Shown: positions 314-21,245, counted from the stretch's first letter. The stretch is DNA of 24,000 nt from Melioribacteraceae bacterium (GCA_965224785.1 OZ245062.1:1075091-1099090), one strand, 5' to 3'. The notes: generated by a model not told the origin, from the sequence alone. Made by a program: numbers and translations.

Positions 314-1585
314 TTAGGAAATAGGGACAAGCTCTTTTAACTTTTTTTCTAAAAAATCTTTATCGCGTTTATTAGCTGAAAGAGAAATTGCTTTATTGAA
401 ATGTTTGATTGCTAAATCAATTTTATTTTCCAATTTGTAAAACTCAGCAATGGTCGATTGGAAAAGATAATAATTCCCAATATCTGAATTTGAATTGAGA
501 TTTAACAATTCATTAATTGCAACTTCATTTCCCTTTATTTTTGATAAGGCAACACATCTGTTTAATTCAATAATAGGGGAGTTCTGTAACAATAAAAGTT
601 TATCATATAGAGAAAGAATTTCTTTCCAATTTGTTTGTTCAAAAGTTTGGGCTGTACAATGGTTAGCTGAAATTGCTGCTAAAATATGATAACTGGAAAC
701 TTTATTTTCACTTATTCCTAAATTTAGATTATGAATTCCTTTCGCGATTAATTCTTTATTCCATTTATTACGGTCTTGCTTATCCATTTCAATTAAAGAA
801 TTATCTTTGTTTGTTCGAGATTCAAATCTAGAAATGTTCAAGTACATAAGAGCTATCAAGGCATAAGAATCAGCCTTCTCTTTAATATACTTACTGCTAA
901 TAATTATTTCAGTTAACCTAATAGCTTCAAGACATAAATCGTATCTTATTATTTCGTTTTTATTTGATGGACTGTAACCCTCGTTAAAAAGTAAATAAAT
1001 AGTTCTAAGAATAATTGTAAGGTTTTCATTTATATTTTGTGGAATTTCAAAACTGACTTTGTTCTCTCGTAACTGTTTGCGTCCTCTTACTAATCTCTTA
1101 TTGATTGTTTCGTTAGTTGAGAAAAAAGCATTTGCAATTTCTGCAATACTAAAGCCACAAAGTATCTTTAGAATTAGAGCAATTTGAGAATTCTCAGAGA
1201 TTGATGAATGGCAACAAACGAACATCATTTTTAATTGTTCATCTAAAATCATTTCTTCAGATATTTGTAGATTCTCAAATTCTACATAAGAAGATTGTAA
1301 ATTTCTTGTCTCCGACTTATATTTTATGTGATGTTGTTTTCGCTTTAATATGTTGAGAGTTAAGTTTTTTGCAGTTGTATATAACCAAGCATTGGGCTTT
1401 TCGGGTAAACCGTTTTGTTGCCAAGAGTCAACTGCTTTTAGTAAAGTTTCTTGAACAATATCTTCGGCAGTTTCAACATTTTCAGTTCCAATGTATCTTG
1501 TAATTACAGAAACAATTTTACCATATTCATTTCTGAAAAAGTGTTCGATTAATTCTTGGCTATATTTCTTGTGAAATTTGTTCAT
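314..1585 (-). CDS. ECF-type RNA polymerase sigma-70 family factor with a long C-terminal TPR-like extension (ECF42-like)
   Basis: 423 aa. The N-terminal ~170 aa has sigma region 2 (AEDIVQETLLKAVDSW) and region 4 HTH (SIAEIANAFFSTNETINKRLVRGRKQL). About 240 aa of helical-repeat extension follows. ATG start at 1583-1585. A YCII/DGPF gene lies immediately downstream, the partner typically found with ECF42. Confidence 0.85.
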   Translation of the reverse strand: MNKFHKKYSQELIEHFFRNEYGKIVSVITRYIGTENVETAEDIVQETLLKAVDSWQQNGLPEKPNAWLYTTAKNLTLNILKRKQHHIKYKSETRNLQSSYVEFENLQISEEMILDEQLKMMFVCCHSSISENSQIALILKILCGFSIAEIANAFFSTNETINKRLVRGRKQLRENKVSFEIPQNINENLTIILRTIYLLFNEGYSPSNKNEIIRYDLCLEAIRLTEIIISSKYIKEKADSYALIALMYLNISRFESRTNKDNSLIEMDKQDRNKWNKELIAKGIHNLNLGISENKVSSYHILAAISANHCTAQTFEQTNWKEILSLYDKLLLLQNSPIIELNRCVALSKIKGNEVAINELLNLNSNSDIGNYYLFQSTIAEFYKLENKIDLAIKHFNKAISLSANKRDKDFLEKKLKELVPIS

Positions 1586-2127: not shown

Positions 2128-2514
2128 TTAACTCCTGCCTTTATTTATAAATTGTAATTTAGATTGAAAAATATTAGCTATTGATTTTGCTCTTTCTTTG
2201 GCTAATTCAGTAGTCTTACCTTCAAATAATTCATCTATATTTTGAATGAAAAGCTTTAACCATCTATCAAAATGAAGTTTATCAATTGGAAGAGGAATAT
2301 GCTTTGGAAATGGATTTCCCTGGTAATCTACGCCACCCAAAAGTACCATATCCCAAAAACTATACATAATTGGAAGATGCACTTTCCAATCTACTTTTGC
2401 AAAGTCATTGAAAACTTGGGATAAAATATCATCCGAATTTACTTTGTCGTAAAACAAATTCACCAATGTTTCTATATCTTTCTTGGATGTAATATCTTTT
2501 TTATTATTTATCAT
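2128..2514 (-). CDS. Group III truncated haemoglobin
   Basis: About 128 aa. LVNLFYDKVNSDDILSQVF...WKVHLPIMYSFWDMVLLGG..YQGNPFPKHIPLP...HFDRWLKLF matches my memory of the group III trHb (Ctb-like) family. The track start at 2520 is a TTG. The ATG two codons in (2512-2514) is preferred. Confidence 0.75.
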   Translation of the reverse strand: MINNKKDITSKKDIETLVNLFYDKVNSDDILSQVFNDFAKVDWKVHLPIMYSFWDMVLLGGVDYQGNPFPKHIPLPIDKLHFDRWLKLFIQNIDELFEGKTTELAKERAKSIANIFQSKLQFINKGRS

Positions 2515-2672
2515 GTTCAAAGCTAACCACTAAGCAATAACTTTACTAATATTTTCGTAAGTTGAATCTGAAATAGTTGATTCTCTCACAGAATAAAGGA
2601 AAAATTGTCGTCTTTTTGACTCAAATTTTCTGAGAAAAATTGTTTATTATGTAATAATAAAAAGGGAATATT

Positions 2673-3395
2673 ATGAAATCATTACTATTAGTTTTAGTTT
2701 TTTTATTGGGATGCAATTCAACGCCAAGTGCAAGTTCATTTGATCATTCAACTTTTGATAATTTATTAAAACAAAATGTAAATGAAATAGGACTTATAAA
2801 TTATAAAGCGTTTCAAGAAAGTGAATCATTCAATAAATATCTTAAACAAATTGCTGAAGCAAATGTTAGTAAGTTTTCTAAATCTGAAAAGTTAGCTTTT
2901 TATATTAACACTTATAATGCGTTAATAATTAAAAATGTTATAGATCATCCAAACATAAAATCTCCAATGGATGTTGATGGATTTTTTAAGAAAATAAAAT
3001 TTGAAGTTGCTGGGGAGCATATTACTTTAGATGAACTGGAGCATACCTACACTCTTAAAATAGATGGAGTTTTACCTCACTTCGGACTTGTTTGCGGAGC
3101 TAAGAGTTGTACTAAACTTATTGCAAAGGCTTATAGCTCTAAAGATGTTTTCAAACAGTTAAAGCAAAACGCTAAAGATTTTTTAGGTGATAAATCAAGA
3201 AATTATTATGATAAGGAAAATGATACTTTACATTTGTCAGCAATATTTAATTGGTTCAAAGGATACTTTGAATTTGAATATGGAACTTTGTTAAAAGCAG
3301 TTAAGTTATTATCAAATAAGAAGATAGGTCTTAATATTTCAAGTTCTACAAAGGTGGAATTCTTAAAATATAATTGGGAGTTAAATGTACAATAA
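2673..3395 (+). CDS. DUF547 domain lipoprotein (paralogue 1)
   Basis: 240 aa. Lipobox signal MKSLLLVLVFLLGC. DUF547 hallmarks: FYINTYNALIIKNVI, PHFGLVCGAKSCTKL, LSAIFNWFKGYF, FLKYNWELN. AGGGAA SD before the ATG. Confidence 0.85.
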   Translation: MKSLLLVLVFLLGCNSTPSASSFDHSTFDNLLKQNVNEIGLINYKAFQESESFNKYLKQIAEANVSKFSKSEKLAFYINTYNALIIKNVIDHPNIKSPMDVDGFFKKIKFEVAGEHITLDELEHTYTLKIDGVLPHFGLVCGAKSCTKLIAKAYSSKDVFKQLKQNAKDFLGDKSRNYYDKENDTLHLSAIFNWFKGYFEFEYGTLLKAVKLLSNKKIGLNISSSTKVEFLKYNWELNVQ

Positions 3396-4947
3396 AAAAT
3401 TTTTGGAGATCTTAAAAAGAAATATTCTAAATACATCTGTTCTTTTAATGTTGTTAAATATTTCGAGTGTGGCACAAATAAATAGTTTAGATAATTACTT
3501 TTCAAAAGCAGATTTATTTTTTAAGACTTATGTAAATGATGGATTAGTCAAATACAAAGAAATTAAATCTAACAATAAATCGCTAAGTGAATTAACAAGC
3601 TTTATATCGAATGTAAACTTAGCTGAATTAAAGGATGCTCCCGAAAAGAAATCATTTCTAATAAATACTTACAACTTATTTGTAATTAGTGTTATTGTAA
3701 AAAAATATCCAATTAACTCGCCAAGAGATATTCCTGGTTTTTTTAATTTTATAGAACATAAAATTGGAAGTGAAGAATACACTTTAGATGAGATTGAAAA
3801 GCAACTTCTTTTTGCAGAATACGATGACCCACTATTTCACTTCGCTTTAGTTTGTGCAGCTGTAAGTTGTCCTGAAATAATAAATGAAGCTTACAAGCCT
3901 ATAGATATTGACGAAACTCTGAATAAGAAAGCAAAGCTGACATTAAATAGTAGTAAACATATAAAAGAAGATGAATCAAATAAAACAATTTATTTAAGCA
4001 AAATATTTGATTGGTACACAAGTGATTTCAAGAAAGATGGTAAATCTGTAATAGAATTTATAAATCAGTTTAGAGATGTTAAACTAAACAACAATTATTC
4101 AGTTCAATATTTACCTTATGATTGGGCATTGAACCAAGTTAATACTAGCGGTTTAGATCTACAAAGTTTATCTCCGTCTGCCTTGCTCCCAAATGGACAA
4201 GTTGAACTGAAAATGTTTAACAATCTTTACACTCAAACCGCATATTACAATTCTGAATCAGAGAAAATTGAGCAGGGGAATAGGAGTAATTTTTTAACAT
4301 CAATAATCTCAGCAACCTATGGTCTAAATTCATCAATCAATTTGGGTCTAGATTTGTGGTTACGCTCATCTTCTGAAGTTGAAGAATCTTCTTCTCCGTT
4401 TGGACTTTTTAGTTTTAATGCAAACCGCCAACGTACTGCTATTAGTAGGATAGGTCCACGTATAAAGTTTGTTCCTTCCAAAAGCGGAGCATTGCAAAAT
4501 GTTTCAATTCAATCAAGTTTTTTAATTCCAACAGTTTCTAATTTAAGCGGAAGTGATGAATTCTTTTATCTTGATGATGACACTTATTTATTTATAAATC
4601 AGTTTTTGTATGATGCAACTTTGAATAAAGATTTATCATTATACGTTGAACTTGGCGTTTGGATGAAACTAAACCGAGATGATTTATTTGAAAATATAAA
4701 TTACAATCTACCCCTAAAATTATTTGTAAATTATTATGCAACACCAAGACTAACACTTTATGCAATGAATGAATTTAACTATGGCTTTAATTCTTTTAAT
4801 GATTCTTATTTTAACCAAACTGGAATAGGTGCAAAATATTTAGTTCTTCCAAATATGGAGTTGGAAGGATTAGTAACAAAGTTTTTATTTGCAAAAAGTC
4901 AAGGAGCTGGAACTACGTTTAATCTTGGCATTAGATTGATTTATTAG
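3385..4947 (+). CDS. DUF547 domain (N-terminal ~250 aa) fused to a C-terminal ~260 aa putative outer-membrane beta-barrel-like domain (paralogue 2)
   Basis: 520 aa. Signal-like N-terminus (...VLLMLLNISSVAQ). DUF547 motifs: FLINTYNLFVISVIV, FHFALVCAAVSCPEI, LSKIFDWYTSDF, YLPYDWALN. The C-terminal half has alternating hydrophobic/polar strands, is rich in N/S/Y/G and ends in an aromatic residue (FNLGIRLIY). Its start overlaps the upstream stop by 11 nt and is preceded by GGAG. Confidence 0.8.
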   Translation: MYNKKFLEILKRNILNTSVLLMLLNISSVAQINSLDNYFSKADLFFKTYVNDGLVKYKEIKSNNKSLSELTSFISNVNLAELKDAPEKKSFLINTYNLFVISVIVKKYPINSPRDIPGFFNFIEHKIGSEEYTLDEIEKQLLFAEYDDPLFHFALVCAAVSCPEIINEAYKPIDIDETLNKKAKLTLNSSKHIKEDESNKTIYLSKIFDWYTSDFKKDGKSVIEFINQFRDVKLNNNYSVQYLPYDWALNQVNTSGLDLQSLSPSALLPNGQVELKMFNNLYTQTAYYNSESEKIEQGNRSNFLTSIISATYGLNSSINLGLDLWLRSSSEVEESSSPFGLFSFNANRQRTAISRIGPRIKFVPSKSGALQNVSIQSSFLIPTVSNLSGSDEFFYLDDDTYLFINQFLYDATLNKDLSLYVELGVWMKLNRDDLFENINYNLPLKLFVNYYATPRLTLYAMNEFNYGFNSFNDSYFNQTGIGAKYLVLPNMELEGLVTKFLFAKSQGAGTTFNLGIRLIY

Positions 4948-4986
4948 AAAGAACATTGTGAATACCTCTCATAAAGAAAAACACCT

Positions 4987-5025
4987 TGTCATTCCGGTTT
5001 CTGTTTTTTAGAATACCGGAACCTC
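4987..5025. repeat. Half copy (left arm hairpin) of the CCGG-subfamily element
   Basis: tgtcattccggtttctgttttttagaataccggaacc. The TTCCGGT/ACCGGAA stem matches the left arm of the full copies, and no right terminus follows. It lies 40 nt after the stop of the 3385-4947 CDS, so it could serve as a terminator hairpin. Confidence 0.6.
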
Positions 5026-5215
5026 ATAACACAGTTAGGCTCATACTAATAAAAAAATAAGAATGGCTTTCCGAAAGTAAAATCAATTTTAATAATTGTT
5101 CTCATGAGATATCCGCATGTCTTTGTTGGTAAATTAAATTACGATTACAAAGGTGTAGCCATTCATAGAATTATTTATATTTTGATAATAATTATATTTC
5201 ATATTTATAATTAGG

Positions 5216-5965
5216 TTAAAAAGTTCTTACAACTCTTACTCTATATTCATCACTTTTTGCTCTAACGTAATTTGCTCCAGATCCAGTATAAAGACTAACT
5301 GCAATTGCCCTTACATACGTATATTCAGTGGAACTCCAGTAAAGAGCATCAGAAAAATTTCCTATATCATCTTTCATAGTATATATAATACCTAATTCTC
5401 TTCTAGTTGGTAAACGCCAGTCCTTAAAGTTTTTAGAATAAGACCATTGGTTATAACTCCAACTAGTTTCATCATTAATAAGATTTGGTGGATCATACCA
5501 ATTTGCATTTGAAAAATGATCTCTGTAAGCAACTACAGTACCATGTTCCCCATTAGGACTCACTTCTATTACATATCCTCCAAGGCTTGTATACCAATTG
5601 CCAACAGAATATTTATAAATACGTTTAAGCTCAGTTCTTTGCCACATTAGTTTACCATTTCTTTGGTATAATCTATTTCCATCAAGAGTATCACTAACAG
5701 ATTTTAATAATATAGAAGCAGCATCATTCCCTTGATCTATGATTTGAAGTATTGCGTTGCCAGTTTCATTTCTAAACGATATACTATCACCATTGGCTTG
5801 AGGTGAATTAGGTTGTAGAAAATTGGTTTTATCACTATTCTCATTTTCGGATTGCATAATAGTATTTCCTTGTGCAATAATGAGAGACGTTTCGTCTCCA
5901 AAAAACTCTGCCACAATAGGTAAAAGAAAGACGAAAAACGAAAGATGTAAAATATTTATTTTCAT
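5216..5965 (-). CDS. Secreted DUF1566 (Lcl C-terminal-like) domain protein
   Basis: 249 aa with a hydrophobic signal (MKINILHLSFFVFLLPIVA). The C-terminal half carries GGYVIEVSPNGEHGTVVA, WRLPTRRELGIIY and YWSSTE, which are characteristic of DUF1566. Confidence 0.65.
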   Translation of the reverse strand: MKINILHLSFFVFLLPIVAEFFGDETSLIIAQGNTIMQSENENSDKTNFLQPNSPQANGDSISFRNETGNAILQIIDQGNDAASILLKSVSDTLDGNRLYQRNGKLMWQRTELKRIYKYSVGNWYTSLGGYVIEVSPNGEHGTVVAYRDHFSNANWYDPPNLINDETSWSYNQWSYSKNFKDWRLPTRRELGIIYTMKDDIGNFSDALYWSSTEYTYVRAIAVSLYTGSGANYVRAKSDEYRVRVVRTF

Positions 5966-6139
5966 ATTATTGCTCCATATTTTGGTTTAACTTGTTTGTG
6001 AGATTTCTGTCTTCCCAAAAAGATGGTAAATTTGAATGACAAATGTTTTAGCAATATGACAGAGGGTCTCATTTAATTGGTTTATATTTAGTAATTATAT
6101 TTGTGTAGTAAACTAATAGTATTAACTATATAAAATCAA

Positions 6140-6155
6140 CTACCTATATAGGTAG
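6140..6155. promoter_or_regulatory. Perfect 16-bp palindrome CTACCTATATAGGTAG in a long non-coding gap (possible dimeric regulator site or hairpin)
   Basis: Read directly from the sequence; it is self-complementary over all 16 nt and followed by tattttt. It lies between the divergent genes 5216-5965(-) and 6542-7888(+). Its function is unknown. Confidence 0.35.
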
Positions 6156-6541
6156 TATTTTTGAGTTGAAAATTTTTAAAGGATTAAAAATGCAGCACTT
6201 AAAATAAAATACACTTAATAATAGACAGTAAAATATTTGGGAAATTAAAAGTAGGAGGGTGTTTAATCTTTTTGTTTTCGTAAAGTTAATTGCATAAAAC
6301 TTTAAGCTAAGTTCCAATTATCACAGCAAATAATATCCCCTCAAAAAACGGAGGGCAGGCTGTACCAATGGTACTTTTGTTGTTTCTTATATAAATATTA
6401 TTAAATAGTTTATAATGCGGTTCCAAGTAAAACTTCGCCAAGTTTTATTATTATAGTAATATAACTAATGTAAGCTATATGACTAAAAAAGAAGTTTAGT
6501 AGAATTATTATAATGTTCAAATGTTTTAAAAATAAGTAAAC

Positions 6542-7888
6542 ATGAAATATTCAATAATAATAATAACCCATAACGAAGAAGATAAAATACTTGAGTGCAT
6601 TACTAGTGTAAAGAATACCTCTAAGAATATTTCCGAATATGAAATAATAGTTTCAGATGGGGGAAGTACAGATAATACTCAAAAAATTGTTGAAGGCGAA
6701 GGAGCATTATTTAATAAATCTCCAGTTGGAAGAGGTGTGCAGACAAATACGGGAGCACGGTTAGCAAGTGGCGAGATTCTAATCTTTCTACACGCAGATA
6801 CTTTATTCCCCAAGAATGGATTTGATGTTTTAGAAAAAGCATTTAAAAACGCAAATGTAAAAATTGGTACTTTTAAAATGATGTTTGATGAACCAAGTTT
6901 TATTTATAAAGTTTATTCTTTTTTCACAAAATTTGATTCAGTTTTTACTTCCTTTGGTGACCAATGTATTGTTGTAAGAAAAATCTTTTTTAACAACTTA
7001 GGTGGTTATCCCGATTGGCAGATATTTGAAGATGTTCACTTTTTACGTAAGGCAAGAAAAGAAACTAAGATTTATTCATTCAATGGAACAGTAATTACTT
7101 CTGCTCGTAGATTTAAAAAGAATGGATTACTCTGGCAACAATTTAGAAATTCATATTATATTTTTCTTTATTTTACTGGAATTAATCATAAGAACTTAAA
7201 AGAAAAATACGGAAGTACTAAAATAGGAACTATGAACGAATCACTAATTATTTTTGTTAAATACCCTGAAGAAGGAAAAGTAAAAACTAGACTTGGAAAA
7301 ACAATTGGTTTTGAAAAAGCCACTAAAATTTATACTCAATTAGCGGAGCATAGTTTTAACGAAGCTAGAAAATTAAAAAAAGTTTCTCGCTATTTATTTT
7401 TTGTCGATGAACTAAATAGAAAAAAAATATCAAATTGGGTTGGTGTTGGTTTTAGTTTTTATCCCCAAAGTATTGGAGATTTAGGAGACAAAATGAGAGC
7501 AGCGTTTTCTAAAGTCTTTACAAAAGGTGCCAATAAAACTTTAATAATTGGCTCAGACTTGCCGGATATTTCAAAATCATTAATGTCAAAAGCTTTCAAA
7601 GATTTAGATAAAAATGATATTGTAATTGGTCCTAGTAAAGATGGAGGTTACTATTTACTTGGTATGAACAAGTTTTATCCTGAATTATTTGATGGAGTTG
7701 CTTGGAGTACTGAGCAAGTTCTTGAACAAACTTTGGAGAAAGTAAAATCACTAAATCTTTCTGTTACATTATTAAAAGAACTGAATGATATTGATACTAT
7801 TGAAGATCTAAATGATTGGCAGAATAAGGAGCATACAAAAGAAGATTCTAATTCGCTTGTTGAAAAGTTAGTCTTAGAATATAAATAG
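6542..7888 (+). CDS. Fusion protein: N-terminal family-2 glycosyltransferase (TIGR04283-like) plus C-terminal DUF2064 transferase (TIGR04282-like), the 'rSAM/selenodomain-associated' or 'arsenosugar biosynthesis' transferases
   Basis: 448 aa. N-domain: YSIIIITHNEE, VSDGGSTDNT, GRGVQTNTGARLASGEILIFLHADTLFP. C-domain from about residue 231: MNESLIIFVKYPEEGKVKTRLGK...LIIGSDLPDIS...VIGPSKDGGYYLLGM...AWSTEQV, which is the DUF2064 pattern. An in-frame ATG at 7232 marks the junction. Confidence 0.8.
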   Translation: MKYSIIIITHNEEDKILECITSVKNTSKNISEYEIIVSDGGSTDNTQKIVEGEGALFNKSPVGRGVQTNTGARLASGEILIFLHADTLFPKNGFDVLEKAFKNANVKIGTFKMMFDEPSFIYKVYSFFTKFDSVFTSFGDQCIVVRKIFFNNLGGYPDWQIFEDVHFLRKARKETKIYSFNGTVITSARRFKKNGLLWQQFRNSYYIFLYFTGINHKNLKEKYGSTKIGTMNESLIIFVKYPEEGKVKTRLGKTIGFEKATKIYTQLAEHSFNEARKLKKVSRYLFFVDELNRKKISNWVGVGFSFYPQSIGDLGDKMRAAFSKVFTKGANKTLIIGSDLPDISKSLMSKAFKDLDKNDIVIGPSKDGGYYLLGMNKFYPELFDGVAWSTEQVLEQTLEKVKSLNLSVTLLKELNDIDTIEDLNDWQNKEHTKEDSNSLVEKLVLEYK

Positions 7889-7910
7889 CAGATAAATAAT
7901 TACTGCAATG

Positions 7911-8011
7911 TGTCATTCTGGTTTCTAGTCTTTGGATTATCGGAATATATAAACTCTAGTTGTATGAGATTCCGGTATCCCGCGTAAGGAACTGCGGAAA
8001 CCGGAATGACA
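7911..8011. repeat. Full copy of TGTCAT...ATGACA element, CCGG subfamily
   Basis: 101 bp. Termini tgtcattctggtttc / gaaaccggaatgaca are inverted. Internal blocks are ggattatcggaat, gagattccggtatcccgc and gcggaaaccgg. It starts 23 nt after the stop of the 6542-7888 CDS. Confidence 0.85.
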
Positions 8012-8030
8012 AAGTAAAAAAATCCAAATC

Positions 8031-8129
8031 TGTCATTCCGGTTTCTGTTTTTTGGAATACCGGAATCTCCGATCTAGAATTGTACGAAATTCTTGTGTTG
8101 AATAAAAGACAATGCAAACTGGAATGACA
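8031..8129. repeat. Full copy of TGTCAT...ATGACA element, CCGG subfamily (right arm degenerate), in tandem with the 7911-8011 copy
   Basis: 99 bp: tgtcattccggtttctgttttttggaataccggaatct...aaactggaatgaca. A 19-nt spacer separates it from the previous copy. It ends 28 nt before the TTG start at 8158. Confidence 0.8.
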
Positions 8130-8157
8130 GATGAAAATATAACAAAGGAAATTAAAT

Positions 8158-8916
8158 TTGAGAATAATAATTTTATTAACAATTTTTATTTTATCCACAA
8201 ATCTTTACTCGCAAGATCAACACTCAACTTTTACAGAAATTCTTAAAAGAAATGTTTCTGATGGGAAAGTTGATTATAAAGGATTGCTAACCGAAAAAAG
8301 TTTTGATATTTATCTCAACCAACTTAAAAATACAAATCCAGATACAATTAAAAACAAAAACAATAAACTAGCTTTTTGGATAAACGCATATAATGCTTTT
8401 ACATTAAAAATTATTCTTGATAACTATCCACTTGAAAGTATTAACGATTTACATAGTGGGGGACTAATTTTTGGGAGCATATTTAGTACAACTATTTGGG
8501 ATAAAGATTTTATTATAATCAATAATGGGGCAATTTCTCTTGGTGCAATTGAACATAAAATATTGAGAAAGAAATTTAATGAACCTAGAATACACTTTGC
8601 AATTGTATGTGCTTCAATCAGCTGTCCACCATTAAGGAATGAAGCTTTTGAAGGATATAAAATAGACGAACAATTAACTAGTCAAGCAAAGTTATTTGTA
8701 AATGATGTTACAAGAAATAAATTTGATATAAATAAAAAAGAAGCAGAGTTATCAAAAATATTTAGTTGGTTTGATGACGATTTTGGGAATGATGATGACA
8801 AGGTACTTTTGTTTATATCACAATTTCTACCAGAAGAATTGAAAAGTAACATTACAAATAATAGCACTGAGTGGGATATCGATTACTTAAGCTATAATTG
8901 GAATTTGAATGAATAG
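8158..8916 (+). CDS. Secreted DUF547 domain protein (paralogue 3)
   Basis: 252 aa. TTG start, with AAAGGAA 8 nt upstream and no in-frame ATG that would retain the signal peptide MRIIILLTIFILSTNLYSQ. Motifs: FWINAYNAFTLKIIL, IHFAIVCASISCPPL, LSKIFSWFDDDF, YLSYNWNLN. Confidence 0.8.
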   Translation: MRIIILLTIFILSTNLYSQDQHSTFTEILKRNVSDGKVDYKGLLTEKSFDIYLNQLKNTNPDTIKNKNNKLAFWINAYNAFTLKIILDNYPLESINDLHSGGLIFGSIFSTTIWDKDFIIINNGAISLGAIEHKILRKKFNEPRIHFAIVCASISCPPLRNEAFEGYKIDEQLTSQAKLFVNDVTRNKFDINKKEAELSKIFSWFDDDFGNDDDKVLLFISQFLPEELKSNITNNSTEWDIDYLSYNWNLNE

Positions 8917-8949
8917 AAAAACTAAACTAAGGTTTTGTTTTTTTTTGTT

Positions 8950-9052
8950 TGTCATTCCGGTTTCCAGTTCTTTTGGAATACCGGAATCTTCAAACTAACA
9001 AAGTATGAGATTCCGGTATCCCGCATAAGAAACTGCGGGAATCGGAATGACA
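8950..9052. repeat. Full copy of TGTCAT...ATGACA element, CCGG subfamily (best-preserved copy)
   Basis: 103 bp. Left arm hairpin ATTCCGGT(8954-8961)/ACCGGAAT(8980-8987). Right arm attccggtatcccgc...gcgggaatcggaat. Termini tgtcattccgg / atcggaatgaca. It ends 43 nt before the ATG at 9096. Confidence 0.85.
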
Positions 9053-9095
9053 ATTACTAATTGGGTGTAAATGGATTAAAAATAAAAGGAGAAGT

Positions 9096-9428
9096 ATGAA
9101 TTACTACGAATCAAAAGATTTAGGAAAATTTGCAGAAGTTGGAAAATTTAAAAAAGAACTAATGGACAAGTTTTTTGACTATTACAATAGTGTTCTTAAT
9201 GCAGATGGATCACTTACAAAACGTGAGAAGTCCTTGATAGCCTTAGCTGTTGCACATTCCAAACAATGTCCGTATTGTATTGATGCATACACAACATCAT
9301 GTTTAGAAAATGGTTCTAATCCGGATGAAATGACAGAAGCAATTCACGTTGCTGCTGCAATGGATGCTGGAATTGATTTGGTGCATGGAGTACAAATGTT
9401 AAACCAGTTTGATAAGTTAGGGGTATAA
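9096..9428 (+). CDS. AhpD-like / carboxymuconolactone decarboxylase-fold 'arsenosugar biosynthesis-associated peroxidase-like' protein (TIGR04169-like)
   Basis: 110 aa. AhpD-type motif ALAVAHSKQCPYCIDAYT (CxxC). Strong AGGAG SD. Its stop overlaps the ArsS start (TAATG at 9426-9430). Confidence 0.75.
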   Translation: MNYYESKDLGKFAEVGKFKKELMDKFFDYYNSVLNADGSLTKREKSLIALAVAHSKQCPYCIDAYTTSCLENGSNPDEMTEAIHVAAAMDAGIDLVHGVQMLNQFDKLGV

Positions 9429-10456
9429 TGGAAAAGTTGGATTTTGAAATACTAACTAAAAATGGAAGTACAGCAAAAAGTGAATTTGACTTTGCGAAAC
9501 ATTTAGAAAATCACAAAGTAGATATCTCTCCACTCTCTGTTGAGACACTGCAAGTTAACATTACGAAATTATGTAACCAAGCTTGTTTGCATTGTCATGT
9601 AGATTCATCTCCAAACAGAACGGAGCATATGGATTTGAGGACTATTGATAAATGTCTTGAAATTCTTGAAAGTGATGATAGAATTAAGAATTTAGATATT
9701 ACCGGAGGTGCTCCCGAACTACATCAGCACTTTAGATATATGGTTAAGGAAGCTCGTAAAATGAACAAGCGAGTAATGGTGCGTCATAACCTTACTGTTA
9801 CTCACGATCCTCATCCTAATACTGGCGAAAGTAATTTTGACCTTCCAGATTTTTTTGCTGAACAGAAAGTTGAACTAATTTCATCCTTACCATATTACCA
9901 AGAGTACTTTACAGATAAACAAAGAGGGCGAGGGGTTTTTGAAAAAAGTATTGACTCACTAAAAATGCTAAATGCAAAAGGGTATGGAAAGGGGAATCCG
10001 GAATTAACTTTAGACTTAGTTTATAATCCAGTTGGAGCTTTCCTTCCGGCATCCCAATGCGAGTTAAAAGAAAAATTTGAGAAAGAATTATCTGCAAATT
10101 TTGATATTACATTTGACAATTTATTTGTTGTAACAAATATGCCAATTCACAGATTTAAAAAAGATTTGGAACGTAGAAATGGATACGAAGATTATTTGGA
10201 CAAACTTGTTAATGCATTTAATCCAATAGCAGCAGAAGGTGTTATGTGTCGCTCTATGATTAGCGTTAGTTACGATGGCAAAGTTTATGACTGTGATTTT
10301 AATCAAATGTTAGAAATGCAAATAACAAATAAAACACCTCAAACTATTTTTGATTTTGATTATAAAAAATTATTAGAAAGAAAAATATTAGTTGACTCAC
10401 ATTGCTTTGGTTGTACTGCCGGAGCAGGGAGCAGTTGTGGTGGAGAGACAGCTTAG
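9428..10456 (+). CDS. arsS: Radical SAM / C-terminal Cys-rich domain protein, ArsS family (TIGR04167-like)
   Basis: 342 aa. Radical SAM CX3CX2C at C49/C53/C56 (KLCNQACLHCHV, nt 9572-9595). GGAPEL glycine-rich SAM motif. Cys-rich tail CRSMISVSYDGKVYDCDFN...HCFGCTAGAGSSCGGETA. Translationally coupled to the AhpD-like gene. Confidence 0.8.
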   Translation: MEKLDFEILTKNGSTAKSEFDFAKHLENHKVDISPLSVETLQVNITKLCNQACLHCHVDSSPNRTEHMDLRTIDKCLEILESDDRIKNLDITGGAPELHQHFRYMVKEARKMNKRVMVRHNLTVTHDPHPNTGESNFDLPDFFAEQKVELISSLPYYQEYFTDKQRGRGVFEKSIDSLKMLNAKGYGKGNPELTLDLVYNPVGAFLPASQCELKEKFEKELSANFDITFDNLFVVTNMPIHRFKKDLERRNGYEDYLDKLVNAFNPIAAEGVMCRSMISVSYDGKVYDCDFNQMLEMQITNKTPQTIFDFDYKKLLERKILVDSHCFGCTAGAGSSCGGETA

Positions 10457-11190: not shown

Positions 11191-11373
11191 TAGTGATAGT
11201 AAATAACTATAGTCAATAATATTTTATATCTAATAAGGTTACTATTGAAAATAGATATTAAAATATTTTTTGTTATGAATTGCAAACTATAATAACTTCT
11301 TTTGAGAAAGAGAGCATAACTTGACACTCAACTACGTTAGTAGATGAAGATGGACATTATTAACTATTTATTC

Positions 11374-11844
11374 TTAATTTTTAGAAAACTTAAAACCCTT
11401 TATAGGTTCACGCAAAGTTAAAACTGGACACGGAGCTTTACGTACAACTTTTTCTGCCGTGCTACCAAATAAAAGATGCTCCATTCCAGTATGTCCGTGA
11501 GTTGCAATAATAATTAAATCAATATCTTCTTCAGCGGCAGTTTCGTTAATCTCAACAAAAGGTTTGCCAGTTTTTATTATTACATCCGTTTCAATTGTGT
11601 CGCCAATTTCTGTTTTGATTAAGGTATTCAATTCTTCTTTTGCTCTGTCCGTAATTTCAACATCAGACGATGGAAATGAAACTTGTCCCATACTAAAATC
11701 AGAGGGATAAATTACTGGTTCAATAACATAAACCAAATAGATTTTTGAGTTGAATTGTTTAGCAAAACTAACAGCGTAGCGAAGAGCATTTTTGGAGTAA
11801 TTAGAAAAATCAATTGGAACTAATATTTTGGATATATTGTTCAT
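11374..11844 (-). CDS. Universal stress protein (UspA family)
   Basis: 156 aa. ILVPIDFSNYSKNALRYA...DLIIIATHGHTGMEHLLFGSTAEKVVRKAPCPVLT is the canonical USP ATP-binding pattern. AAGGAG SD 8 nt upstream. Confidence 0.9.
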   Translation of the reverse strand: MNNISKILVPIDFSNYSKNALRYAVSFAKQFNSKIYLVYVIEPVIYPSDFSMGQVSFPSSDVEITDRAKEELNTLIKTEIGDTIETDVIIKTGKPFVEINETAAEEDIDLIIIATHGHTGMEHLLFGSTAEKVVRKAPCPVLTLREPIKGFKFSKN

Positions 11845-12008
11845 AACTGAAACTCCTTACTTTGTGGTATGAGTAAACTAATGGTAAGAAAAAAATATCA
11901 ATTTGTCAAATATTTTCATAATTGTAAAAGTCGGCTAATTGCTTAGAGGGAGTGATATGTTAAGTCTTCTGTAGCGTTGCACAAATTGCTGGTAATTATA
12001 TTCGCAGA

Positions 12009-12044
12009 CTGGAAAGTCCACGATACGTAGTGTAGACTTTCCAG
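12009..12044. repeat. 10-bp inverted repeat CTGGAAAGTC / GACTTTCCAG with a 16-nt loop
   Basis: Read directly: 12009-12018 pairs with 12035-12044. A second hairpin TAGTACTT(12061-68)/AAGTACTA(12072-79) lies 15 nt downstream (minus strand) of the HisA-like stop. Neither hairpin has a U-tract. Confidence 0.5.
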
Positions 12045-12094
12045 CATGCGTAGAAGTTTTTAGTACTTAGAAAGTACTAGCAAATGGAAATCAA

Positions 12095-12847
12095 TTAATC
12101 AAATATTCCAGACTCTGCAACTCGCCACATTTTCTGGCATGCAAATTTATTCTCGTACATAGCTCGCCCAATAATAACGGAGTCAATTCCAAACTCTGAA
12201 TTTTCTTGAACCGAAATTAAATCTTTATAATTACTTACACCTCCGGAAAGCGTAACTTTACCTTTTGTAGCTTGAGCAATATTTTTGCAAAGTTCAATGT
12301 TGGGTCCTTCTAACATTCCATTTCTTATCACATCAGTTACAACAAATCTATTTATTCCAAAGTCTGTAAGTTTTTTGGCAAACTCAATTGCTGACATTCC
12401 AGTTTTGTTTTTTCTGCCATGAGTTACAACTTCATTATTGATAACATCAATAGAGGCAGAGACTTTTGTTGGTCCATACTTTTCTAATATTTTCATATAT
12501 TCATTCGGATTAGAAACAGCAAGAGAGCCAACAACAATTCTAAATACACCAAGCTCAAAAATTTCATCAGCTTCTTCTAAGGAATGAATACCACCTCCAT
12601 ACTCAATTGGAATAATTACAGACTCGCAAATTTCACCAAGTATTTCATAGTTCTTATGCGAGTGATGATGAGACGAATCAAAATCTACAACGTGAATAAC
12701 CTTTGTATTTTCGGCTCGCCAAATCATTGCCATCTCTACTGGATCGTCTCCATACTCTTTGCAATTCAAATACGGAATTCCTTGTACAACTCTTACAGTT
12801 TTTCCATCTTTAATATCTAAAGATGGTATTACTAATATTTTATTCAT
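12095..12847 (-). CDS. HisA/HisF-family (beta/alpha)8-barrel protein (ProFAR isomerase-like), orphan
   Basis: MNKILVIPSLDIKDGKTVRVVQG...IPIEYGGGIHSLEEA...VVGSLAV...ASIDV...VVTDVIRNGMLEGPN...LSGGVSNYKDL...VIIGRAMYEN follows the HisA/HisF pattern. The track start at 12889 is a TTG adding 14 aa. The ATG at 12845-12847 gives the canonical N-terminus. No other his genes are nearby. Confidence 0.65.
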   Translation of the reverse strand: MNKILVIPSLDIKDGKTVRVVQGIPYLNCKEYGDDPVEMAMIWRAENTKVIHVVDFDSSHHHSHKNYEILGEICESVIIPIEYGGGIHSLEEADEIFELGVFRIVVGSLAVSNPNEYMKILEKYGPTKVSASIDVINNEVVTHGRKNKTGMSAIEFAKKLTDFGINRFVVTDVIRNGMLEGPNIELCKNIAQATKGKVTLSGGVSNYKDLISVQENSEFGIDSVIIGRAMYENKFACQKMWRVAESGIFD

Positions 12848-12928: not shown

Positions 12929-12970
12929 AGATTCTGGTATTACTCAAAGAACGTGTAAACTGGAATGACA
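12929..12970. repeat. Half copy (right arm and terminus) of the CCGG-subfamily element
   Basis: agattctggtattac...gtaaactggaatgaca resembles the right half of the 8031-8129 copy. No left terminus was found. Confidence 0.5.
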
Positions 12971-14280: not shown

Positions 14281-15348
14281 ATGAACCTTAAAGAAAAAAT
14301 ATTTCTTTTATCTATTGTTATTTTTATGGTGTCTTGCGATTATGGAAATAATCTAAAAGATTTTGGAACCACTATTTATAAAATCTACACATTTAATTTA
14401 TCTGATAGCACGCTACATGAAATATCAGATGGACTTAGACCAATTACATTATTTCAGGCAGACAAACTATTGTTTGTTACTGAAGAAAATTTTTCCTCAA
14501 AAGTTTGGTTATATGATTTTTCAACGAAAGGAAAAGAAATACTTGCCAATGACTTGCATCCACCCTTGTTTGATGATAGTGTTGTATCCCCAGATGAAAA
14601 ACATCTAGTATTTATTAAAGATAAAAAGCTAAAACTTATGGATTTAAATAGTGGTAATGTTCAAGTCATTGATTCATCTTCAAATGAACTGATACATATT
14701 CCAGTACCTAAGTTTTCAAATGATGGGAAATATATTGTCTATATATCCAGCGTAAAAGAAAAGATGGATTCTAGCAGTTCAAAATTCTATTATTTGAACA
14801 TTTATAATATTGTTTCGAAGAGTACAATATCAATTGATACTGCTTTTGTTAAAGGACATGATAGATTAGAAGCTAAATTTACAAATGATTCTAAAAAAGT
14901 TTATATGTTACGAGATGGCTGGCATCCTTCTAATTTTCGGCGTCAGTTTGAATTTACAATTTATAGTTTAGAACAAACTCCTAAACTGTTTAGAAAAAAA
15001 ACTATTTACACTTTTGATTACAGAAATAATTCTTGGAATATCGAGGATGATAAAATTTTAATTCTAGATAGAGTAGGTCTGAGAGAATATGATATCAAAA
15101 ATGATATTTTAACAAAAACCAAAAAAATAGATATTTCATTAAAGGAGTTTGAAATTAGAAAAGTAAAAAACTTAGATTATTTAATAGGAGCAGATGAAGA
15201 AAATAACATCCAACTAATAGATCTAAAAGGTGAAATAAAGTATAAAATAAAACCTAAAATTGAAGGACAAATTTATTGGGCAGATTATTTTCAGAAACAT
15301 AATTATATTCTATTTGCAACAAGCCAATATTTGCCACCACAAAATTGA
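14281..15348 (+). CDS. Lipoprotein, possible beta-propeller (TolB/PD40-like repeats)
   Basis: The track start at 14245 is a TTG. The ATG at 14281 gives MNLKEKIFLLSIVIFMVSC, a lipobox. Repeated motifs VSPDEKHLVFI and FSNDGKYIVYIS resemble PD40 blades. The functional call is weak. Confidence 0.55.
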   Translation: MNLKEKIFLLSIVIFMVSCDYGNNLKDFGTTIYKIYTFNLSDSTLHEISDGLRPITLFQADKLLFVTEENFSSKVWLYDFSTKGKEILANDLHPPLFDDSVVSPDEKHLVFIKDKKLKLMDLNSGNVQVIDSSSNELIHIPVPKFSNDGKYIVYISSVKEKMDSSSSKFYYLNIYNIVSKSTISIDTAFVKGHDRLEAKFTNDSKKVYMLRDGWHPSNFRRQFEFTIYSLEQTPKLFRKKTIYTFDYRNNSWNIEDDKILILDRVGLREYDIKNDILTKTKKIDISLKEFEIRKVKNLDYLIGADEENNIQLIDLKGEIKYKIKPKIEGQIYWADYFQKHNYILFATSQYLPPQN

Positions 15349-19980: not shown

Positions 19981-20045
19981 ACTAAAAAAAATAAAAATTA
20001 TAGTAGCCTAATATTAAAATAATTACATTCTAACAATTCATCCAA

Positions 20046-21245
20046 ATGAAATCCAAAAGCTCACTAACAATAATATTCCTAACTGTATTTATAGACTTGC
20101 TGGGTTTCGGTGTTCTAATCCCAATCCTTCCAACTTTTGCAAGCAAGGAATTACAAATTACTGATTTTGAAATTGGAATTGTGGTTGCTGCATTTTCATT
20201 TGTGCAATTTATTTTTAATCCAATACTTGGAAGACTCTCTGATAGAATAGGGAGGCGACCGATTATACTTGTCTCATTATTCATTACTTCAATTGCTTAT
20301 TTATGGTTTAGTTTTGCGGATTCGTTCCTAATACTTTTGCTATCACGAATGTTAGCCGGGCTTGGTGGAAGTAACATTAGTGTTGCTCAAGCTTATATAG
20401 CGGATATTACGGATGAAACCAATCGTGCAAAGGGGATGGGATTGATTGGAGCAGCTTTTGGATTGGGTTTTGTATTCGGTCCAATGTTGGGAGGAATGCT
20501 TTCGCAATATGGCTATCATATAGTTGGTTATGTAAGTGCTACATTTTCGTTTATGGCATTTTTGTTTGCAACTTTTAAACTTAAAGAATCACTTAAGGAG
20601 GAGAATAAATCTAGGGCAAAAAATACTTATGCAATTTTTTCAAAAGAAACTTTGTCCGAAGTTTTTAATAACCATAAACTTAGATTTGTAATATTTATTT
20701 ATTTTATAATAGTTTTTTCGATGGCAAATATTTATGGTACATTTTCTTTACTAGCTTATAAAGTATATCACTTTACAGATATGCAAATTGGTTATTTGTT
20801 TGGAACAATAGGAATTGTAGGAGCAATAGTACAAGGTGGATTGATAAAAAGATTGTCTCAAAAGTTTAAAGATGAACATCTAGTTTTAGCTGGAATATTT
20901 TTTATGATGCTTGGTCTTGTTGGTTTGCCTTATGGGGGAAGTTTTATTGGTGTAGCAATCATCGGAGGAGTTTTGGCATTTGGAACCGGCATTTTACAAC
21001 CAACAATTTTAGGAATGGTTTCCAAAGATGCGAACTCTGGGAATCAAGGGAGTATACTTGGGTTTAACCAATCTGCTGCATCAATGGCAAGAGTGCTTGG
21101 TCCTCTTTGGGGAGGATTTGCATTTGAATTTCTTGGTTATCAATTCCCATTTTTAACCGGAGGAATATTTACATTTGTTTTGCTAATTTTCACAATTTAT
21201 TATTTCAATTCACAAAATAGAAAGACAAATACTACGAATGTTTAA
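20046..21245 (+). CDS. MFS transporter (DHA1/tetracycline-efflux-like)
   Basis: 399 aa with about 12 TM helices. Motif A GRLSDRIGRRPIIL and motif C-like GLIGAAFGLGFVFGPMLGG. Confidence 0.88.
   Translation: MKSKSSLTIIFLTVFIDLLGFGVLIPILPTFASKELQITDFEIGIVVAAFSFVQFIFNPILGRLSDRIGRRPIILVSLFITSIAYLWFSFADSFLILLLSRMLAGLGGSNISVAQAYIADITDETNRAKGMGLIGAAFGLGFVFGPMLGGMLSQYGYHIVGYVSATFSFMAFLFATFKLKESLKEENKSRAKNTYAIFSKETLSEVFNNHKLRFVIFIYFIIVFSMANIYGTFSLLAYKVYHFTDMQIGYLFGTIGIVGAIVQGGLIKRLSQKFKDEHLVLAGIFFMMLGLVGLPYGGSFIGVAIIGGVLAFGTGILQPTILGMVSKDANSGNQGSILGFNQSAASMARVLGPLWGGFAFEFLGYQFPFLTGGIFTFVLLIFTIYYFNSQNRKTNTTNV

Follow-up and report, generated by a model that had tools for sequence, protein, structure and literature searches.

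We analysed a stretch of 24,000 nucleotides (nt) from a Melioribacteraceae bacterium (GCA_965224785.1, OZ245062.1:1075091-1099090), referred to here in its full length as the window, which carries a gene set that includes the radical S-adenosylmethionine (SAM) enzyme ArsS. An earlier reading of the sequence alone (hereafter the sequence-only reading) had drawn attention to this locus as an arsenosugar-type gene set that lacks an arsenite methyltransferase gene, arsM. Judged from its sequence, the locus appears to be an ordinary, already nameable copy of the "arsenosugar biosynthesis" set of genes, which is widespread among bacteria. Modules of this kind are known but poorly characterised, and the copy in the window is in itself unexceptional. 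The new content is modest and consists of an extended anatomy, with three genes for exported DUF547 proteins, and of a linkage between DUF547 and the module at the level of the phylum.

The ArsS module of the window

Six open reading frames (ORFs) make up the module in the window, which we term DUF547a, DUF547b, the GT2/DUF2064 fusion gene, DUF547c, the AhpD-like gene and ArsS (Table 1). All four core families scored above their NCBIfam curated cutoffs (300 bits for TIGR04167, 120 for TIGR04169, 182 for TIGR04283 and 134 for TIGR04282), and the family assignment of the sequence-only reading therefore stood. Because NCBI already holds a protein that is identical to the window ArsS and named ArsS, from a Melioribacteraceae metagenome-assembled genome, this assignment is one that the standard annotation pipeline already gives. 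The ArsS family is very large, with more than 8000 matches at E ≤ 1e-20.

In the 85%-identical relative (loci L004 and L005; surveyed loci are cited by their L numbers), genes for a DUF547 protein of 240 aa, a DUF547 protein of 521 aa, the GT2/DUF2064 fusion, a DUF547 protein of 252 aa, the AhpD-like protein and ArsS follow one another without interruption. The DUF547a gene is contiguous with the module in both loci, and an orthologue of DUF547b was found in L005. Because 2673-3395 and 3385-4947 are the counterparts of genes that are contiguous with the fusion gene in this relative, we counted both in the module, which thus reaches further upstream in the window than the sequence-only reading had it.

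The TIGR04167 match of ArsS (E=1.5e-125) spans residues 37-340 of the protein and positions 6-302 of the 303-position model, and the Pfam domains of the protein are Radical_SAM and DUF3641 (176.4 bits for the latter). The cluster-binding motif CX3CX2C corresponds to C49/C53/C56 (nt 9572-9595), and the Cys-rich tail HCFGCTAGAGSSCGG to residues 325-339 (nt 10400-10444), both as the sequence-only reading had described them. The window ArsS thereby shows the hallmark of TIGR04167, that is, the cluster motif together with a DUF3641 C-terminal domain that ends in a Cys-rich or selenocysteine-containing tail. The AhpD-like protein, which belongs to the carboxymuconolactone decarboxylase (CMD) family, has its CxxC motif at C58-P-Y-C61 (nt 9267-9278), and its stop codon overlaps the start codon of ArsS in the sequence TAATG at 9426-9430, which agrees with the translational coupling proposed before. 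A fusion of ArsM with an AhpD domain exists as an NCBIfam family of its own (NF041537), the AhpD region of which is weakly matched by the AhpD-like protein of the window.

In the twin transferase, the GT2 half matches TIGR04283 at residues 4-223 (nt 6551-7210, 204.9 bits), and the DUF2064 half, which has a CofC-like nucleotide-diphospho-sugar-transferase fold, matches TIGR04282 at residues 235-423 (nt 7244-7810, 219.6 bits). The Pfam matches are Glycos_transf_2 and DUF2064, and the C-terminal half also matches the structural-genomics entry 3cgx of the PDB (E=2.8e-40). Because the same fusion recurs in L004, L005, L060 and L100, and in at least four lineages, consecutive action of the two transferases gains support. 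We take the protein, on these matches, to be a genuine two-domain fusion; both it and the secreted DUF547 protein (DUF547c) were correctly placed upstream by the sequence-only reading.

Table 1. Features of the window, ordered by position
Feature	Position (nt)	Strand	Family match or remark
ECF-type (extracytoplasmic function) sigma factor with DUF6596 C-terminal domain	314-1585	-	divergent from DUF547a
Palindromic repeat, further copies	1635-1729; 4987-~5090
Palindromic repeat, fragments	6017-6041; 12946-12970
Globin gene and small cupin-like gene	1782-2126, 2128-2520		between sigma factor gene and DUF547a
DUF547a, predicted lipoprotein, 240 aa	2673-3395	+	Pfam PF04784, 76.4 bits
DUF547b, 520 aa, predicted signal peptide, DUF547 domain and C-terminal extension	3385-4947	+	PF04784, 68.0 bits
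Predicted exported Lcl_C protein	5216-5965	-	Pfam Lcl_C; C-terminal region of NCBIfam Lcl collagen-like adhesin model
GT2/DUF2064 twin-transferase fusion, 448 aa	6542-7888	+	both halves above curated cutoffs
Palindromic intergenic repeat, ~100 nt, two tandem copies	7911-8130 (7911-8012, 8031-8130)		spacer between fusion gene and DUF547c
DUF547c, predicted exported, 252 aa, TTG start	8158-8916	+	PF04784, 96.0 bits; N-terminal signal peptide
Palindromic repeat, third spacer copy	8949-9053		between DUF547c and AhpD-like gene
AhpD-like/CMD-family protein, 110 aa	9096-9428	+	TIGR04169, 167.6 bits
ArsS radical SAM enzyme, 342 aa	9428-10456	+	TIGR04167, 418.4 bits
Small membrane protein, 129 aa	10801-11190		downstream of ArsS; no family match

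Most ArsS loci lack a linked arsM

No ArsM-like methyltransferase, ArsR, ArsC or Acr3 turned up in family scans that took in every window ORF of 80 aa or more with the exception of four overlapping annotated genes (7956-8198, 14363-14608 and 20030-20284 among them), and a search of all window ORFs of 70 aa or more with an ArsM profile returned nothing, so the absence of these genes from the 24 kb, as claimed by the sequence-only reading, was confirmed. Contigs of the same strain extend the view by approximately 7 kb on the right, where a sensor kinase, a response regulator and a beta-helix protein are encoded, and by approximately 1.7 kb on the left, where two YCII proteins are encoded; no arsM was found on either side, and the possibility that one sits just outside the window, raised by the sequence-only reading against itself, did not materialise in these flanks.

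To place this absence in context, we surveyed the 80 most similar (47-64% identity) of at least 600 ArsS loci, with one genome per species. ORFs were called in all loci, clustered and subjected to iterative profile searches, and neighbours were counted within 10 kb of ArsS. The loci came from Bacteroidota, Acidobacteriota, Proteobacteria, Nitrospira, Planctomycetota, Gemmatimonadota, Myxococcota, Bdellovibrionota and others, with no phototroph among them. Because all 80 are non-phototrophic, it is the norm in this part of the family for the host to be a non-phototroph.

An ArsM-like methyltransferase was a neighbour of ArsS in 20% of the 80 loci (n=16); when only loci with flanks of at least 5 kb to either side were counted (n=30), the linked share fell to 17%, and with flanks of at least 9 kb (n=23) to 13%. 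An ArsS locus without arsM is thus the majority state (80-87% of the surveyed loci) and no anomaly, and the suggestion that the missing arsM marks something special was not borne out. Of the other families, which the same reading had named as co-occurring, AhpD-like genes were present in 78% of the loci (62 of 80, in most cases directly upstream of ArsS), DUF2064 transferases in 39% and GT2 transferases in 22%. Less frequent neighbours were a FAD disulfide-type oxidoreductase (12%), the rhodanese NF045521 (11%), a purine nucleoside phosphorylase (PNP; 8%), a fatty-acid-hydroxylase-like protein (8%), DUF547 (6%) and a NapH-like protein that is often paired with the oxidoreductase (5%).

Five of six linked methyltransferases that were tested scored 552-577 bits on NF038099, the model named "arsenosugar biosynthesis arsenite methyltransferase ArsM" (cutoff 400); these are the approximately 323-aa type found in Bacteroidota-type loci. 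The linked methyltransferases of L008 and L086 are ArsM-like and fall below this cutoff, and small methyltransferases near ArsS in L098 and L099 proved not to be ArsM-like. Because of the linked ArsM genes, the ArsS family is tied to arsenic also in heterotrophs. An ArsS-ArsM fusion in a sulfate-reducing bacterium was reportedly described in 2024.

In six loci (L044, L054, L060, L079, L080 and L084), which are Bacteroidota-type (Chitinophagales, Flavobacteriales, Cytophagales) or from Bdellovibrionaceae, a PNP gene is the immediate neighbour of ArsS or of the transferases; a representative scored 359 bits on NF006054 (cutoff 218). The ArsS operons of Ignavibacteriales (L087-L089 and L100) open with a fusion of approximately 830 aa that joins a YpdA/thioredoxin-reductase-like flavoprotein to a NapH-like Fe-S membrane domain, with an MptA_B-family GT-C and a polyprenyl-phosphate-type GT2 as flanking genes. 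In L100, for instance, genes of this arrangement lie at 4152-6650 and 11209-12516. The flavoprotein and the NapH-like protein are encoded by separate genes beside ArsS in L027, L061, L064 and L081.

Linked and unlinked ArsS proteins do not fall into classes

We aligned 84 near-full-length ArsS sequences, 16 of which are ArsM-linked. Pairs from the same class (linked or unlinked) had a mean identity of 58.2%, and pairs across the classes one of 58.4%; no alignment column discriminated the two classes among the 84 sequences, and for 6 of the 16 linked proteins the nearest neighbour was unlinked, so that the classes are interspersed. Among the 63 positions that are invariant throughout are all eight of the cysteines C49, C53, C56, C274, C289, C326, C329 and C337. 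The window ArsS is 64% identical to two ArsM-adjacent orthologues (L008 and L011), which are as close to it as any relative in the genome set outside its own phylum except L007 (68%). The comparison argues against a switch of the ArsS substrate in unlinked loci, short of excluding it.

Exported DUF547 proteins belong to the module in Ignavibacteriota

All three DUF547 proteins of the window exceed the Pfam gathering threshold of PF04784 (27 bits), and no NCBIfam model matches them. They are all predicted to be exported, DUF547a by a signal with the lipobox LVFLLGC, and DUF547b and DUF547c by signal peptides. The domain motif is HFGLVCGAKSC in DUF547a, HFALVCAAVSCP in DUF547b and, in DUF547c, the invariant H146...C151-x4-C156-P at nt 8608-8625. 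The underlying pattern H-x4-C-x4-C-P is kept in all ArsS-linked DUF547 proteins, which likewise start with a signal peptide or a lipobox, except in L027 and L076, where the start of the ORF is unclear. An AlphaFold2 (AF2) model of DUF547c built on 35 sequences was confident (predicted local distance difference test, pLDDT, 90.1; predicted template modelling score, pTM, 0.86), and neither its fold, by Foldseek (best E 1.4), nor its sequence profile found a match in the PDB. For the C-terminal approximately 270 aa of DUF547b (residues ~250-520), there was no Pfam match even at E=5, and a single-sequence AF2 model of the protein was unusable (pLDDT 32); that this half forms an outer-membrane barrel or anchor is only a guess, which we base on the terminal aromatic residue (...GIRLIY) and nothing else.

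The order DUF2064-DUF547-AhpD-ArsS was found in all three homologues of DUF547c (55-58% identity) that we inspected, which had been picked solely for their long contigs and not for linkage to ArsS, and it recurs in the Ignavibacteriaceae loci L087-L089. A DUF547 gene follows the DUF2064 gene also in L027 (Flavobacteriales) and L082 (Chitinophagales), and in an Adhaeribacter locus (L067) DUF547 lies directly upstream of the gene for the ArsM named AsSugarArsM. By gene order, the module of the phylum in question, the Ignavibacteriota, thus includes DUF547 as a conserved and still unexplained component. A literature search returned nothing on DUF547 in bacteria, and the only literature context that we found for the domain is a plant fusion of class IV glutaredoxin, DEP and DUF547, which is itself uncharacterised.

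Repeats, an inserted gene and the flanks of the module

The palindromic repeats of Table 1 have the termini TGTCATTCCGGTTTC ... GAAACCGGAATGACA and look like repetitive extragenic palindromic (REP) elements or miniature inverted-repeat transposable elements (MITEs). A 14-mer of the repeat has nine matches in the window at up to two mismatches, against 0.06 expected, and the 14-nt terminus has no exact match in any of the relative loci that were fetched. An Rfam search of the window, repeats included, gave no match anywhere, and no riboswitch was detected. In relatives the fusion or DUF2064 gene overlaps the following DUF547 gene by 4 nt; in the window, this spacer holds repeats. The Lcl_C gene is inserted between DUF547b and the fusion gene and is not at this position in L004 or L005, and copies of the repeat bracket it. 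Promoter-like sites are no more frequent in the window than in shuffled sequences, and terminator-like sites are slightly above them (5 versus a mean of 2.9, standard deviation 1.7).

At the left end, the DUF6596 sigma factor gene adjoins the first DUF547 gene directly in L004, whereas in the window the globin gene and the small cupin-like gene lie between them; the sigma factor may regulate the DUF547 genes. The gene for the small membrane protein downstream of ArsS is present in the same-strain contigs and not at this position in the 85%-identical relatives. Apart from these genes, the window encodes a Usp, a HisA-family protein, an acyl-CoA dehydrogenase, a hydrolase, a CCG/Fe-S protein, PGA_cap, an MFS transporter, DusB and a phosphoribosyltransferase.

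Comparison with known systems

The four core families of the window and their order, with AhpD directly upstream of ArsS, are those of the arsenosugar set of NCBIfam/TIGRFAMs. Two members of that set, NF038099 AsSugarArsM and the rhodanese NF045521, are absent from the view that the window gives, and the window differs from the set in that its transferases are fused and in that DUF547 genes, for which there is no NCBIfam model, are added in this phylum.

Extended hopanoids offer a second parallel. In the formation of their side chain, the radical SAM enzyme HpnH adds a whole 5'-deoxyadenosyl group, after which the PNP-family enzyme HpnG removes adenine to leave a ribosyl derivative. The PNP genes that flank ArsS in six surveyed loci resemble this pairing; HpnH, however, belongs to another radical SAM subfamily and its acceptor is a carbon double bond, not arsenic, and the window lacks a PNP gene. 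The ArsL/ArsM pathway to arsinothricin likewise combines the formation of a C-As bond by a radical SAM enzyme with an ArsM-type methyltransferase, but ArsL transfers a 3-amino-3-carboxypropyl radical and is of an unrelated subfamily that the window protein does not match.

The functional reference is ArsM-ArsS of Synechocystis sp. PCC 6803 (Xue et al. 2019, as cited in bioRxiv 10.1101/2022.09.23.509062), the ArsS of which shares with the window protein the TIGR04167 family and a Cys-rich C-terminal domain. The reaction would be alike, namely the adenosylation of trivalent dimethylarsenic, DMAs(III), to DDMAA (5'-deoxy-5'-dimethylarsinoyl-adenosine; PMC13598754). In Synechocystis, arsS adjoins arsM and is co-transcribed with it (bioRxiv 10.1101/2022.09.23.509062), whereas the window and its short flanks do not encode an ArsM of the NF038099/PRK11873 type together with ArsS, as a complete pathway of this type would. 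Unlike Synechocystis, the window adds the AhpD-like partner, the fused transferase pair and the three DUF547 genes.

A proposed pathway and its alternatives

With a probability of about 0.65, we read the locus as the Melioribacteraceae (Ignavibacteriota) version of an ArsS module that makes 5-deoxy-5-dimethylarsinoyl-ribose (arsenosugar-type) compounds. ArsS adenosylates DMAs(III) to DDMAA, an activity for which the enzyme is known from a cyanobacterium only (PMC13598754), and adenine is removed after DDMAA has been formed (bioRxiv 10.64898/2026.04.29.721666). Our literature search found nothing on the steps after DDMAA, and the statement of the sequence-only reading that the chemistry of the two transferases and of the AhpD-like protein is uncharacterised holds for the literature searched.

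On this reading, the window ArsS, by homology at the equivalog level, would reductively cleave SAM and add the 5'-deoxyadenosyl radical to trivalent dimethylarsenic, as shown elsewhere. Because the AhpD-like protein is nearly always beside ArsS, is coupled to it here and belongs to a thiol-redox family that is also fused to ArsM (NF041537), we take it to deliver or regenerate the trivalent arsenical, which it may do by thiol reduction of pentavalent dimethylarsenic, DMAs(V), or as an As-thiolate carrier; in relatives, the YpdA/thioredoxin-reductase-like reductase fused to the NapH-like Fe-S membrane domain may feed it. Because PNP genes are wedged between ArsS and the transferases in six loci, adenine may be taken off DDMAA phosphorolytically where such a gene is linked. 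A ribose-1-phosphate product would be a fitting substrate for a CofC-like nucleotidyltransferase (TIGR04282), with an inverting GT2 (TIGR04283) acting next, so that the DUF2064/CofC-like half of the fusion might activate the arsenoribose phosphate as a nucleotide sugar and the GT2 half pass the sugar to an aglycone, giving the beta-riboside that is typical of arsenosugars. More speculatively, the three exported DUF547 proteins, with their H...Cx4C-P motif, might have an envelope-side role, with the product or an incoming arsenical as their target; such a step is hinted at because a polyprenyl-phosphate-type GT2 and an MptA_B-family GT-C occur in relatives alongside the exported DUF547 proteins. 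The dimethylarsenic itself would most likely come from an unlinked arsM or from the methylated arsenic of neighbouring organisms, and the reading can do without a linked arsM, as the majority of ArsS loci have none.

Several points weigh against this reading. Within the approximately 33 kb in view, there is no arsM, PNP or ars resistance gene, and the best 120 matches of a homologue search with the ArsM of L008 (all at least 63% identical) included none from the source contig; the search for DUF547c homologues, by contrast, did recover the window's own protein from that contig. We know of no product that has been measured from this module or from any closely related module of a heterotroph. 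The roles of the AhpD-like, transferase and DUF547 proteins are deduced from gene neighbourhood and fold family alone, and it is difficult to see how exported DUF547 proteins would work with partners in the cytosol without an export step.

The missing arsM would also suit a genome that has none and a module that scavenges DMAs(V) or DMAs(III) made by other microbes, with the AhpD-like protein reducing it, less reactive arsenosugar-type compounds as the result and DUF547 possibly capturing the arsenical. The 80-87% of ArsS loci without linked arsM, the export and invariant Cys pair of all three DUF547 proteins and the thiol-disulfide oxidoreductase/NapH fusions that accompany the module in relatives can be read in this way. 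An unlinked arsM, however, fits every one of these results equally well, nothing shows that DUF547 binds arsenic, and no arsenical transporter was identified, and we regard such cross-feeding as unlikely. Slightly less probable still is the idea, advanced by the sequence-only reading, that an ArsS without linked arsM adenosylates something other than arsenic, such as a selenium, sulfur or antimony compound, to give a non-arsenic 5'-deoxyribosyl product. The family was first noted for its selenoprotein members, and its NCBI name still contains "(seleno)protein"; rhodanese (NF045521) and disulfide reductase genes recur nearby, and arsM accompanies only a minority of loci. The ArsS proteins themselves lend this no support, given the interspersed classes, the lack of a discriminating column, the equal mean identity, the invariance of all eight cysteines, the 64% identity of the window protein to ArsM-adjacent orthologues and its score far above the equivalog cutoff. 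The reported ArsS-ArsM fusion of a sulfate reducer also speaks against the idea, as it ties ArsS to arsenic in a non-phototroph. Lastly, the minus-strand Lcl_C gene and the three spacer copies of the repeat interrupt an arrangement that is compact in relatives, and they could have broken the operon so that its genes are not co-expressed or have lost function. Decay of this kind seems very improbable to us, as none of the six module ORFs is truncated, their catalytic and invariant motifs are all intact and the coupling of AhpD to ArsS is preserved.

Within the arsenosugar-type reading, the exported DUF547 proteins could represent an arm of the ArsS module that works outside the cytoplasm and has gone unrecognised until now, an idea that we hold only tentatively and consider doubtful. 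If it is true, the Ignavibacteriota pathway would involve the cell envelope and would not end with a soluble cytosolic arsenosugar, and DUF547 would either serve, beyond the cytoplasmic membrane, to attach or process a glycoconjugate or lipid that bears an arsenoribosyl group, or capture methylated arsenic from the surroundings. The first of these options fits the Ignavibacteriales relatives, in which a polyprenyl-phosphate-type GT2 and an MptA_B-family GT-C share their loci with ArsS.

Implications

ArsS modules are very common in heterotrophic bacteria, and the ArsS step is the only one shown biochemically so far. Because a linked arsM is the exception, co-occurrence at the level of the genome, and not of the neighbourhood, is the right test. 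A concrete and testable route from DDMAA to a riboside is suggested by the PNP genes linked to ArsS and by the fusion of the CofC-like and GT2 transferases. The finding of a DUF547 subfamily as a conserved operon member in one phylum places a domain that is also fused to plant glutaredoxins in a functional setting for the first time.

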